From the NCBI GenBank assembly GCA_043798995.1, contig JAZDOD010000008.1, positions 119,468-183,467 on the forward strand: a DNA stretch of 64,000 nucleotides, in the 5' to 3' direction. Positions 16,230 through 18,509 of this stretch are shown in pieces. Position 1 is the first letter of the stretch, and each line of letters starts with the position of its first letter. A model generated the notes under the pieces. The model was given only the letters and a program-made list of their open reading frames with translations, searched no databases and was not told where the DNA came from. This DNA is from a bacterium. GTDB taxonomy: Bacteria; Patescibacteriota; Patescibacteriia; JAACEG01; JAGUWE01. The position numbers were made by a program, and so were the translations under genes.

Positions 16230-18509
16230 ATGAACACTAATAATATAAAAGATTTAGAAAATAGATTGTGGGAGGCGGCGGATCACATGCGTGCCAACTC
16301 TCCCTTGCGTCTCAATGAATTTGCTGAGCCGGTTTTGGGTTTAATTTTTCTTAAATTTGCTGGCGTAAAACATAACAAAGTGGCAAAAGAGATAGCTGAA
16401 GAAAGAAAAAAGAAGCCCAAGAACCTTGGCGGAGCTTCAGTTTCGCGTGAACGGCCGATTTCTTCCGCGGATTATCATGCGCGCGGCGGTACGCTTTTTA
16501 TTCCCCAAAAAGCCCAGTTTCCTAATCTTATAGAACTGCCAGAGGGAACGGATATGGGCAAGGCTGTGAATGATGCCATGAAAGAGATTGAAGTGGAAAA
16601 TAAAGAACTTGCCGGTATCCTCCCAAAGACATTTCAAAACCTCGATAATCGGTCAATAATTGCGCTTCTTAAAAATTTTAATCAGATCCCTGACGATATT
16701 GAGGGGGATGCTTTTGGCAGAATCTACGAATATTTTCTCGGCAAGTTTGCTCTTGCGGATGGCACGCGCGGGGGCGAGTTTTTTACGCCGACAAGTATCG
16801 TTAAGCTTATTGTGGAAATTATCGAGCCGTATCACGGCAAGATTTATGACCCTGCCTGCGGCTCAGGCGGTATGTTTGTGCAATCACACGAATTTGTAAA
16901 ACAGCATCTTAAAAACGGACAAAAAGCGCGAGCATCCCGTGAGATTTCAATTTATGGACAAGAAAAAACAGACCAAACCGTTCGCATCGCAAAAATGAAC
17001 CTTGCGATTCATGGTCTTTCTGGGGATATCCGCGAAGGCAATACCTATTATGAGGATAGACACAAAAGTTTGGGCAAATTTGATTTCACGATGGCCAATC
17101 CTCCTTTCAATGTGAAAGGAATTGACAAGGAGCGCATCAAAGATGATAGGCGATTTTCGTACGGGATACCGAGGGCCGATAACGGCAATTGTCTCTGGAT
17201 TCAAATCTTTTTAAATTCACTCAATGAAAAAGGGCGCGCGGGGTTTGTTATGGCAAATTCGGCGAGCGACGCCGGGCATAGCGAAAAAGAGATTCGTCAA
17301 AAGATGATAGAGGGTGGCGTGGTGGATGTGATGGTCGCTGTGGGCCCGAACATGTTTTACAATGTAATCGTTCCTGTGACACTTTGGTTTTTTGATAAAG
17401 ACAAAAAACAATCAGACCGTAAGGATAAAATTCTTTTCGTTGATGCTCGAGAAATTTCTACTCCAATCCCGGGTGATCGAGCGAGAAAATATTGGACCGA
17501 CGAGCAGATCGTAACAATTGCAGGCATTGTAAAAAGCTATAGGGGTGAAAAGGGCACAAAGACATATCAAGATGTAAAAGGTTTATGTAGGGCTGTAACA
17601 CTACAAGAAATAAGAGATGCTGGATACTCACTTAATCCGGGTCAATATGTTGGAATCCTTAGCCCTAAAAATAAAGTTCTGCCGTTTGAAGACCGATTGG
17701 GAATTATTCATAGATTTTTGAAAGAAAAAACGCAACTAAACCAAAGGCTGAATGAACAAATGATAACAAATCTAAAAAATTATTTTAGAAAATTTAATTG
17801 GACTGAGACTGAGTTTTTTTCGCCCGAAATTATAGAACATTTTCTAAGATTAATTTATCAAGAGTGGCTCGCAAACTTTCATTTTCCTGGGTACGAAAAT
17901 GTAAAAAAGGTTGATAGTAAAACCGACTTCGGTAAAATTCCGGAGGGATGGGAGATTAAAAAATTAGGCGATAAATTCGAAGTAATACTTGGAGGTACTC
18001 CTTCTCGATCTAATCCAGACTATTGGAATGGAAGTGTTTCATGGATTAACTCGGGCGAGGTAAATCGGTTGAGAATAACATCTCCAACGGAATTTATTAC
18101 AAAAATAGGTCTTGATAATTCTGCCGCAAAGTTGATGCCGAAACGGACAACTGTTTTAGCAATTACTGGCGCAACACTTGGACAAGTAAGCACGTTAGAG
18201 ATCGAATGTTCGGCCAATCAATCTGTGGTTGGTGTGTACGACAAAAATGCCGCTTATAATGAGTATTTATATTTGTATATTTCTGATCATATCAAGGACA
18301 TAATTTCAAAATCTGGTGGTAGTGCCCAGCAACACATCAACAAAGCAATTGTCGAGGAATATTCGATATTAATACCACCAAAAGAAGTCATTGAGAAATT
18401 CAATAAAATAGCGAAGCCAGCCTTCGACTTGTTGGCCAACCTATTGTTTATGAGTCAGTACCAATACATCAATAAAAGTTTTTTGCCACAGAATAAACCA
18501 AAAAGTTGA
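16230..18509 (+). CDS. hsdM: type I R-M methyltransferase HsdM fused to a half HsdS (single target-recognition domain plus conserved linker)
   Basis: N6-adenine MTase motif IV (MANPPFN). The C-terminal 250 aa carry an HsdS TRD and the conserved ILIPPKEVIEKFNKIAKP region. Confidence 0.85.
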   Translation: MNTNNIKDLENRLWEAADHMRANSPLRLNEFAEPVLGLIFLKFAGVKHNKVAKEIAEERKKKPKNLGGASVSRERPISSADYHARGGTLFIPQKAQFPNLIELPEGTDMGKAVNDAMKEIEVENKELAGILPKTFQNLDNRSIIALLKNFNQIPDDIEGDAFGRIYEYFLGKFALADGTRGGEFFTPTSIVKLIVEIIEPYHGKIYDPACGSGGMFVQSHEFVKQHLKNGQKARASREISIYGQEKTDQTVRIAKMNLAIHGLSGDIREGNTYYEDRHKSLGKFDFTMANPPFNVKGIDKERIKDDRRFSYGIPRADNGNCLWIQIFLNSLNEKGRAGFVMANSASDAGHSEKEIRQKMIEGGVVDVMVAVGPNMFYNVIVPVTLWFFDKDKKQSDRKDKILFVDAREISTPIPGDRARKYWTDEQIVTIAGIVKSYRGEKGTKTYQDVKGLCRAVTLQEIRDAGYSLNPGQYVGILSPKNKVLPFEDRLGIIHRFLKEKTQLNQRLNEQMITNLKNYFRKFNWTETEFFSPEIIEHFLRLIYQEWLANFHFPGYENVKKVDSKTDFGKIPEGWEIKKLGDKFEVILGGTPSRSNPDYWNGSVSWINSGEVNRLRITSPTEFITKIGLDNSAAKLMPKRTTVLAITGATLGQVSTLEIECSANQSVVGVYDKNAAYNEYLYLYISDHIKDIISKSGGSAQQHINKAIVEEYSILIPPKEVIEKFNKIAKPAFDLLANLLFMSQYQYINKSFLPQNKPKS

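Follow-up and report, generated by a model that had tools for sequence, protein, structure and literature searches.

A Type I restriction–modification locus with HsdM fused to a single-TRD half HsdS, and the conserved family to which it belongs

Fusions of HsdM in frame with an HsdS that has one target-recognition domain (TRD), with HsdR encoded separately, are already known as a kind from natural and engineered examples, and Roberts et al. (2012, PMC3510504) explicitly widen the name "Type IMS" to cover them. The natural example is HsdM-S1/2 of Vibrio vulnificus YJ016, called a "minimal intact methyltransferase" (PDB 7EEW; Seo et al. 2022, Int J Biol Macromol 208:381; described in PMC12429846). 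It is a natural single chain in which a Type I methyltransferase (MTase) is followed by a single-TRD HsdS, with a separate HsdR in the operon, and two such chains form an M2S1-like complex. The engineered example, the M-½S fusion of S. aureus CC398-1, elutes at dimer size, methylates the palindromic ACC N5 GGT, and restricts together with HsdR (Bower et al. 2018, PMC6158711). The family described here is a separate lineage of this known kind.

Other described systems share part of this arrangement. The half-S homodimers (EcoR124I HsdS(Δ50), the ΔC and ΔN forms of EcoDXXI, NgoAV and the lactococcal truncated S subunits) have one TRD per chain, dimerise via conserved helices and recognise interrupted palindromes (PMC3874165, PMC12418389). 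N-terminally truncated EcoDXXI HsdS, which like our protein retains the C-terminal TRD, is a functional homodimer on a palindrome (PMC3874165). In all of these systems S is a separate protein and HsdM is free, whereas here S is covalently attached to HsdM. [quoted passage not shown] The MTase-½S systems defined in PMC6158711 have a small Type IIP REase as partner; in our system a full HsdR takes this place, as it does in every related locus. We also considered the "HsdMS" of the literature as a precedent and rejected it, because the term denotes two adjacent genes (P. aeruginosa PA2735/PA2734).

The fusion gene lies at 16230..18509 of the window, by which we mean the whole 64-kb stretch that was analysed, part of a 203-kb contig; this and all other features below are on the plus strand. 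It encodes 759 amino acids from an ATG start with no internal stops, and the product is 100% identical to our homologue P0500, the NCBI protein MFH0819783.1, annotated "MAG: N-6 DNA methylase [bacterium]". A scan for promoters and terminators between 15700 and 25100 gave results at chance level. Pfam identifies HsdM_N at residues 9–140 (E = 1.8e-17) and N6_Mtase at residues 159–475 (E = 1.2e-87), which together span 16254..17654, and then exactly one stretch of Methylase_S at residues 571–719 (E = 2.2e-20). The SAM-binding motif I, DPACGSGG, is at residue 207 and motif IV, NPPF, at residue 290, and the HsdM of PDB 3KHK matches the protein at E = 1.4e-70. No nuclease or helicase domain was identified by Pfam within the 759 residues; both are found in the separate HsdR. 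The order N6_Mtase then Methylase_S is that proposed in a first-pass annotation made from the sequence alone, which read the first 500 residues as a complete N6-adenine MTase, followed by one TRD and the HsdS central linker and then a stop. The MTase is indeed complete and the TRD is indeed single; however, the boundary is nearer to residue 520, and the helix after the TRD is not the central one, as described below.

The HsdM part is 75–86% identical to free-standing HsdM proteins of 516 residues, and the limit of the alignment with these relatives places its end at approximately residue 520. Its last element is a C-terminal tail helix (residues 486–518, 17685..17783; AlphaFold2 pLDDT 85–93), which lines up with the C-terminal end of free HsdM (..NLKKLDL) and has a sequence specific to the fusions. 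Both AlphaFold2 monomer models were poor in the MTase core, where residues 158–300 have pLDDT of 30–45. In the first alignment, rows from HsdS TRD1 were spread over the MTase region; a second alignment, cleaned and using trimmed HsdS halves, gave no gain in pLDDT for the core. We considered whether Met509 could be an internal start producing a free half-S, and rejected this, because the methionine is not conserved across the other fusions.

The part of the protein that follows HsdM consists of four elements: a linker, a helix, the TRD and a second helix with a short tail. The linker (residues 519–531, NYFRKFNWTETEF, 17784..17822) is predicted by AlphaFold2 to be a loop. It is followed by a distal piece of the HsdS central conserved helix (CR1), of 17–21 residues within 532–552 (EIIEHFLRLIYQEWLANFHFPG, 17823..17885; predicted helix 532–548), which aligns to residues 178–199 of the canonical HsdS P0121 and to the central conserved regions of loci L061 and L057. 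The TRD (residues 555–715, 17892..18374; pLDDT 88–96) is equivalent to TRD2 of canonical HsdS, being 71% identical to TRD2 of P0121 and matching residues 217–388 of PDB 1YF2; when 1.84 billion representatives were searched, most of the best 150 hits likewise matched best within the C-terminal half of an HsdS of about 400 residues. The final element (18375..18506) comprises the proximal part of the C-terminal conserved helix (CR2, residues 716–743; predicted helix 718–743) and a degenerate tail of 16 residues with pLDDT below 50. The string ILIPPKEVIEKF, at residues 713–724, is followed by 35 more residues before the C-terminus, and the helix after the TRD corresponds to the C-terminal conserved region of canonical HsdS. 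The C-terminal motif RDxLLPKLxSGE, present in 190 of 239 canonical HsdS, is found in none of 18 fusions.

Residues 178–388 of P0121, a canonical HsdS of 409 residues, cover distal CR1, TRD2 and CR2 and are 71% identical to the S part. The S part is the C-terminal half of a canonical HsdS: TRD1 and the proximal central helix are missing, and the C-terminal helix is shortened. In the AlphaFold2 models the CR2 helix (26 residues) and the distal CR1 piece (17 residues) together amount to approximately one canonical conserved helix; this, and a CR2 cut short without the RDxLLPKL tail, we count in favour of a dimer.

The linker points to how the fusion may have been made. In canonical operons hsdS starts 1 nt past the hsdM stop or overlaps it, and canonical HsdS N-termini read ..TWKKMKFADF and MRNWTETTLGEIVEF. 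The linker, written as NLKNYFRKFNWTETEFF, matches both the end of HsdM (..NFKKLF) and these HsdS N-termini, and it consists of the end of HsdM followed by the N-terminal residues of the former HsdS. We suggest that the fusion was derived from an ordinary hsdM–hsdS pair, in which the hsdM stop would have been lost at the tightly packed M/S junction and an in-frame deletion would have taken out TRD1 and the proximal central helix; the fused scaffold may then have spread, exchanging TRDs and MTase cores with unfused relatives. If so, the junction of the family still records its making, as a lost hsdM stop and a deleted TRD1.

A close canonical relative is provided by locus L123, from a Candidatus Magasanikbacteria MAG (GCA_016212615.1). 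Its HsdR, HsdM and TRD2 are 90%, 83% and 75% identical, respectively, to those in the window, and its island is laid out in the same way, RadC lying upstream and hsdR being preceded by an AAA_14/DUF4143 gene. It differs in that hsdM (ending ..NLKKINI) and a 409-residue two-TRD hsdS are separate genes.

The relationship to the solved V. vulnificus fusion is much more distant. Chain A of 7EEW has 638 residues, compared with 759 here including a full HsdM_N domain, and it matches the window protein only within the MTase core (residues 176–394, E = 2.7e-5). Foldseek comparison of our model, which is poor in that core, with 7EEW chain A gave 12% identity and TM-scores of 0.26–0.31. The two share the same architecture, and the sequence comparison indicates separate origins. 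The engineered CC398-1 proteins share with the window protein an HsdM in frame with a one-TRD HsdS and a separate HsdR. However, they are man-made and retain the N-terminal TRD and the central helix, whereas the window family is natural and diversified, retains TRD2, and has its helix split into a distal CR1 piece before the TRD and a short CR2 after it.

We then asked how widely the fusion occurs. Among the 120 best homologues, 14 are of fusion length (669–785 residues), and 13 of these have the same junction, which is 37–47% identical between them; the remaining one, P0106, carries another kind of C-terminal extension. The fusion occurs in at least nine clusters at 90% identity, comprising about 34 sequences from JGI, ENA, Logan, NCBI and MGnify, and four further fused ORFs were found in metagenome contigs (loci L043–L046). 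In an alignment of 12 fusions there are five unrelated types of TRD (9–22% identity) attached to MTases that are 70–78% identical. These observations support the view that the fusion represents a conserved family with TRD swapping, as would suit a working enzyme.

The same data bear on whether the fusion is an artefact, in which a normal hsdM and a truncated hsdS, separate genes in the organism, were merged by a chimeric join or by a frameshift that arose in sequencing or assembly. The neighbouring AAA_15 gene is frameshifted relative to its orthologue, and indels therefore do exist in this assembly or lineage. However, at least nine independent protein clusters, obtained from different samples with different assemblers, have the same architecture and junction, as do L043–L046; P0001, which comes from another assembly, shows 98% identity across the junction; and the junction is conserved, at the identity given above, between members with unrelated TRDs. 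Because independently assembled relatives have the junction in common, we rule out the frameshift that the first-pass annotation had named as grounds for abandoning the fusion, and an artefact of any kind has next to no chance of being the explanation. A lack of TRD homology in the C-terminal part had been named likewise; the homology is there, both to Methylase_S and, at 71% identity, to P0121.

Elsewhere the fusion was not encountered. A profile of the junction searched against an index of 5.8 billion proteins retrieved only short HsdM fragments and no fusions. A pattern scan of species genomes, using patterns within HsdM, gave ordinary HsdM or HsdS at all 36 loci and no fusions, the matches at these loci ending before the junction or failing to span it. 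No fusions were seen among the best 150 representatives, and no relative was found on viral contigs; in the plasmid collection, 924 records matched, all at less than 60% identity and all with separate M and S genes. The suggestion that an M-½S fusion is unusual is therefore right as to frequency, but the fusion is not unprecedented, given the V. vulnificus protein (PDB 7EEW).

The partner gene hsdR (21665..24820) is intact and encodes 1051 amino acids with HSDR_N, SWI2_SNF2/ResIII, T1R_D3-like and T1RH-like_C domains in Pfam. It contains the PD..ELK nuclease motif, GSGKS at 309 and DEAH at 404, and scores 508 bits against TIGR00348 (cut-off 285). The protein is 72–91% identical to the HsdR beside every related fusion, and in all seven related loci with enough flanking sequence hsdR is 0–1.5 kb downstream of the fusion. 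Its 90% identity to the HsdR of L123 implies that the same motor serves both M2S1 and fused cores.

Two genes lie between the fusion and hsdR. The first (18513..19962) encodes an AAA_15/AAA_21 ATPase, similar to AriA/PtuA, recognised by Pfam over two ORFs and by PADLOC; compared with an intact orthologue of 466 residues in locus L006, it shifts from frame +3 to frame +1 near nt 18885. This gene is an accessory outside the core enzyme. The second (20231..21661), immediately upstream of hsdR, encodes an accessory AAA_14/DUF4143 ATPase (Pfam), the PADLOC candidate PDC-S01, and belongs to the family found before hsdR in L123.

A tblastn search of the 64-kb window with 120 canonical HsdS (E ≤ 1e-3) found no second TRD and no free hsdS, all matches being inside the fusion ORF, which agrees with the first-pass annotation. 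Each of the seven related loci similarly has a single HsdS-like region, inside the fusion, in up to 22 kb of surrounding sequence. The locus is therefore a Type I MTase and HsdR set without a separate two-TRD HsdS polypeptide. A second specificity could in principle be supplied from elsewhere, if the fused half-S were to pair with another half-S, or with a full HsdS and free HsdM, to recognise asymmetric targets. There are precedents, in that co-expressed N- and C-terminal half-S of EcoDXXI restore the wild-type asymmetric specificity (PMC3874165) and lactococcal orphan half-S subunits function with resident systems (PMC12418389), and our search covered the 64 kb of the window. Nevertheless, the lack of a further TRD in this window and around the seven related fusions, and the fact that the fused M already completes a 2:2 stoichiometry, make such heteromers very improbable.

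We propose instead, with a probability of approximately 0.75, that this is a two-gene Type I system composed of hsdM-½S and hsdR, in which an (M-½S)2 homodimer mimics M2S1, reads a palindromic bipartite target and recruits HsdR. Two chains would pair via the conserved helices and the HsdM tail helix of each, imitating the canonical M2S1 complex; the dimer is predicted because the conserved helices are retained and because there are precedents among fusions. The two identical TRDs would face opposite ways, and an interrupted palindrome is therefore expected, with one m6A placed in each half-site, on opposite strands. Two HsdR would dock on the (M-½S)2 core, and would translocate and cut unmethylated DNA as in Type I enzymes. 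That half-S dimers read palindromes, as had been suggested at the outset, is in line with published work on truncated S subunits (PMC3874165) and on engineered M-half-S (PMC6158711); functional half-S homodimers are, however, documented only for Type IC enzymes (PMC3874165), which we count against the homodimer. For the window system we infer dimerisation, target symmetry and restriction activity, and consider that the fusion chains probably do pair up and read a symmetric site.

The protein might alternatively work as a monomer: a single M-½S chain would join one HsdR, resembling a Type ISP enzyme whose parts are encoded by two genes, and would recognise a short asymmetric site and methylate one strand only. 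Type ISP and Type IIG MTases with one TRD do work without a second (PMC3874165, PMC6158711), and the dimer of the window protein is itself a prediction. We consider a monomer unlikely, since the helices that build the M2S1 helical bundle, namely the tail helix of HsdM and the conserved helices of HsdS, are retained in the chain, its CR2 starts with a sequence 71% identical to the corresponding part of a canonical two-TRD HsdS, and its HsdR is 90% identical to one that serves a canonical M2S1; moreover, the engineered fusion and the solved natural one are both dimers.

A more specific version, which we hold tentatively and at somewhat worse than even odds, is that the family is an independent, diversifying M-½S lineage with a circularly permuted half-S (distal helix half, TRD, proximal half). 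Composite coiled-coil helices, each made from CR2 of one chain and the CR1 stub of its partner, would make the dimer obligate, and the family would freely swap MTase cores, TRDs and HsdR with unfused three-gene relatives. M-½S enzymes have been suggested as a stage on the way from classical Type I systems to the single-chain Type IIG/ISP enzymes (PMC3510504, PMC6158711), and a circularly permuted half-S, if real, would be a living intermediate on that path. The window family suggests that the M-½S step was taken more than once in nature, and that this form can persist alongside a normal HsdR while new specificities keep evolving by TRD exchange. For engineering, a Type I system of two genes whose palindromic target can be predicted would also be a compact scaffold. 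In databases, these fusion genes are annotated only as "N-6 DNA methylase", and a genome survey that expects hsdS as a gene of its own would count their loci as incomplete Type I systems.

The locus also shows some decay, in the frameshifted AAA_15 gene and in fragments of hsdS, and this we count against a working enzyme. The fusion could be a dead by-product of an hsdS deletion, with no methylation or restriction left, and the additional genes between the fusion and hsdR and the degenerate C-terminal tail of its HsdS part would fit such a remnant, as would the frameshift and the fragments. It is nonetheless improbable: the ORFs of 759 and 1051 residues are intact with all catalytic motifs present; the degenerate tail is a family-wide feature and not a private lesion; and the scaffold has been kept despite MTase cores that are 22–30% apart and five different TRDs, as expected under selection for new specificities.

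The hsdS fragments are two in number, both downstream of hsdR and both without a TRD, as the first-pass annotation had stated. They were considered as a possible conserved part of the system; this was rejected, as they are absent from all related fusion loci. Fragment 1 (24845..24994), identified by tblastn to HsdS central conserved regions and by translation, begins just past the hsdR stop, lacks a start codon, and reads NSEVPIPPLKTQKQIVAKLSAAQDYKKQLFEQRTKLKELFDSVLHKSFNA followed by two stops; it codes only for a conserved-region helix and the C-terminus. Fragment 2 (25389..25460) has 24 codons, reads IKIPLLPLETQKQIVEKLSAAQEY, and is a partial duplicate of fragment 1, with which it shares a 53-nt direct repeat that is 85% identical.

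The open reading frame at 16230–18509 (+) runs from an ATG start to a TGA end without interruption and encodes 759 residues, in which Pfam identified HsdM_N (residues 9–140, E 1.8e-17), N6_Mtase (residues 159–475, E 1.2e-87) and only one stretch of Methylase_S (residues 571–719, E 2.2e-20). Both the SAM motif (DPACGSGG, residue 207) and the catalytic motif (NPPF, residue 290) are intact. The first-pass annotation had described a complete N6-adenine methyltransferase (MTase) with NPPF, fused in frame to a single HsdS target-recognition domain (TRD), and the domain matches to the N- and C-terminal parts confirm this observation. 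It had also reported no free hsdS: when 120 canonical HsdS proteins were searched against the whole 64-kb window using tblastn (E ≤ 1e-3), the sole match lay inside the fusion ORF itself. Its interpretation is likewise supported. The fusion is a tidy natural case of an architecture already named, engineered and structurally solved, and its family adds detail on fusion origin and modular evolution. The product is identical to NCBI MFH0819783.1, from a 203-kb contig, which is annotated as ‘MAG: N-6 DNA methylase [bacterium]’, so that the fusion goes unmentioned there.

Among the 120 best homologues of the window protein, 14 are 669–785 aa long, and the remainder are ordinary HsdM proteins of ~516 aa, 75–86% identical to its first ~510 residues. 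Twelve long proteins were aligned. Their HsdM parts are 70–78% identical to the window protein and their junctions 37–47% identical (..YSLNPGxYVG..FLKEQT..W....F.S.E.LE.L..LIYxEWFxNxxFPGxE..DSxTDFGKIPxGW); the junction is followed by five mutually unrelated TRD types (9–22% identity), and the proteins end in a short conserved helix. Judged by their sequences, fusions of this type form a family, with at least nine clusters and about 34 members drawn from JGI, ENA, Logan, NCBI and MGnify. A sequencing frameshift splitting hsdM from hsdS, a concern raised in the first-pass annotation, and a chimeric join are both excluded, because the junction recurs in the nine clusters, in four further fused ORFs (735–759 codons) from a metagenome scan, and in a homologue from a different assembly (P0001), whose junction, TRD and C-terminal conserved region (CR2) are 98–100% identical to those of the window protein. 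A 744-aa JGI protein (P0106) has an MTase part that is 77% identical; its C-terminal extension differs, with a junction 13% identical and no precomputed Methylase_S match, and it may represent another type of HsdM fusion that arose independently.

The window also carries a complete hsdR gene (21665–24820, +), encoding HSDR_N, SWI2_SNF2/ResIII, T1R_D3-like and T1RH-like_C domains, with the motifs PD..ELK, GSGKS (at 309) and DEAH (at 404) and a TIGR00348 score of 508 bits. Seven related loci have enough flanking sequence for comparison (L001, L005, L006 and L043–L046). In all seven, HsdR is encoded 0–1.5 kb downstream of the fusion, overlapping it in L005, and is 72–91% identical to the window HsdR; the genes lying between the two vary (PIN, AAA_15, AAA_14). 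It is possible that a partner S subunit is encoded elsewhere in the genome, outside the 64-kb window. Each of the seven loci has only one HsdS-like region, inside the fusion ORF, and hsdR is always nearby; we therefore regard the unit as consisting of hsdM-½S and hsdR.

The S part of the fusion is 71% identical to residues 178–388 of a 409-aa canonical HsdS (P0121), which comprise the end of the central conserved helix (CR1; ~20 residues), the C-terminal TRD (TRD2) and the start of CR2. The top 150 matches to the S part among 1.84 billion representatives include no fusions, and in most of them the best-matching stretch is the C-terminal half of an HsdS of ~400 aa. Free HsdM relatives stop at fusion residue ~520 (..NLKKLDL, then the stop codon), hsdS in canonical operons starts 1 nt after the hsdM stop or overlaps it, and canonical HsdS proteins begin ..TWKKMKFADF or MRNWTETTLGEIVEF. 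Since these features fit, the fusion linker NLKNYFRKFNWTETEFFSPE reads as the C-terminal end of HsdM running into the opening residues of HsdS, after which the chain goes straight to ..EIIEHFLRLIYQEWLANFHFPG in the distal CR1. In the simplest history, the stop codon between the M and S genes would have been lost, exactly the change that Roberts et al. (PMC3510504) introduced into EcoKI, and TRD1 and the proximal CR1 would have been deleted in frame. The C-terminal RDxLLPKLxSGE-type motif, kept in 190 of 239 canonical relatives, is missing from all 18 fusions examined.

AlphaFold2 monomer models were confident for the S part (pLDDT 85–96) and unreliable in both models for the MTase core. They predict an HsdM tail helix (residues 486–518), a loop (519–531), a CR1 stub helix (532–548), the TRD (~555–715), the CR2 helix (718–743) and a disordered tail (745–759). 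CR2 (26 residues) and the CR1 stub (17 residues) together have about the length of one canonical conserved helix, which suggests that each long helix could be composite in a dimer.

Domain content, intact motifs, conserved two-gene synteny and TRD diversification were observed directly. From these we infer that two chains would pair through their two CR2 helices and two HsdM tails into (M-½S)2, reproducing the canonical M2S1 methyltransferase, that the target would be an interrupted palindrome with methylation of both strands, and that two HsdR subunits would bind to this core and cleave at a distance. Half-S homodimers and an engineered M-½S dimer provide direct precedent. The half-S forms of EcoR124I, NgoAV and EcoDXXI, the last also as an N-terminal deletion retaining the C-TRD, act as homodimers on palindromes (PMC3874165), as do lactococcal truncated S subunits (PMC12418389). 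An M-½S fusion engineered from S. aureus elutes at dimer size, methylates ACC N5 GGT and, together with HsdR, carries out restriction (PMC6158711).

A natural M-½S fusion has already been published. Foldseek matched PDB 7EEW, ‘intact MTase from Vibrio vulnificus YJ016’, which is described in PMC12429846, referring to Seo et al. (2022), as S1/2 fused to HsdM, two HsdM1HsdS1/2 chains recapitulating HsdM2HsdS1. Chain A (638 aa) matches the window protein in the MTase core only (E 2.7e-5), so the two are not closely related, and the window family represents a separate lineage that shares this architecture. Fusions of the window type are rare in the collections searched, in keeping with their earlier description as unusual: none of the 36 HsdM loci returned by a species-genome scan is fused (the search patterns lay within HsdM, so this is not a census), and no fused relatives were found in 72,556 plasmids or in viral contigs.

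Over the MTase core (residues 25–475) the fusions do not form a single clade: for each there is an unfused HsdM that is 82–92% identical, often nearer than any other fusion. The tail helix is fusion-specific, with 34% identity between fusions versus 23% between fused and unfused proteins. The canonical three-gene system of a Candidatus Magasanikbacteria MAG (L123) is 90% identical to the window system in HsdR, 83% in HsdM and 75% in TRD2, and has RadC and AAA_14 neighbours in common with it. This non-monophyly and these identities indicate that MTase cores, TRDs and HsdR are common to fused and unfused systems, and one HsdR type evidently works with fused and unfused cores alike. The nearest relatives come mostly from Patescibacteria/CPR MAGs, and the host is bacterial, as other window genes (PilB/T2SSE, GT4, DUF4012) show.

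The MTase gene is preceded by a RadC/UPF0758 gene in fused and unfused members alike (the window, L001, L002, L003, L006 and L123), a conserved linkage. Related loci have RadC immediately next to the fusion gene; in the window, an MNT/HEPN pair (nucleotidyltransferase/HEPN, PADLOC PDC-M05A/B; 14726–15752, +) and a 72-aa GIY-YIG ORF (15899–16117, +) are inserted between RadC (13861–14670, +) and the fusion. Downstream of the fusion is an AAA_15/AAA_21 ATPase gene (AriA/PtuA-like in PADLOC; 18513–19962, +), split over two ORFs; compared with the intact L006 orthologue (3881–5281, 466 aa, 93% identical), it carries a frameshift near nt 18885. An AAA_14/DUF4143 ATPase gene (PADLOC candidate defence family PDC-S01) lies immediately 5′ of hsdR both in the window (20231–21661, +) and in L123 (7398–8867), which suggests that it repeatedly travels with this Type I family.

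As the first-pass annotation had reported, TRD-less hsdS fragments lie downstream of hsdR. One, directly after the hsdR stop (24845–24994, +), encodes a conserved-region helix and C-terminus without a start codon (NSEVPIPPLKTQKQIVAKLSAAQDYKKQLFEQRTKLKELFDSVLHKSFNA, ending in two stops); the other (25389–25460, +) encodes IKIPLLPLETQKQIVEKLSAAQEY, and they have in common a 53-nt direct repeat, 85% identical. Such scraps were present in none of the related fusion loci, and are therefore local debris rather than part of the system; they may be left over from an earlier hsdS or mark a recombination scar.

The genes downstream of 24820 encode, in order, wHTH, NYN, DUF3024 and wHTH proteins. The two hsdS scraps bracket the first of two paralogous 94-aa ArsR/MarR-like winged-helix genes (25048–25332 and 26671–26955, 68% identical). 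Between these paralogues, the NYN-domain (LabA-like) and DUF3024 genes (25550–26605, +) may be further defence-island cargo. An imperfect palindrome of ~40 nt (..ACAAACTTGAGAATGT..) flanks each wHTH gene on both sides (24995–25035, 25330–25370, 26612–26649 and 26965–27005); these elements could act as operators or reflect duplication of a small cassette. One copy contains the region's best promoter-like match (25014–25041, 11/12).
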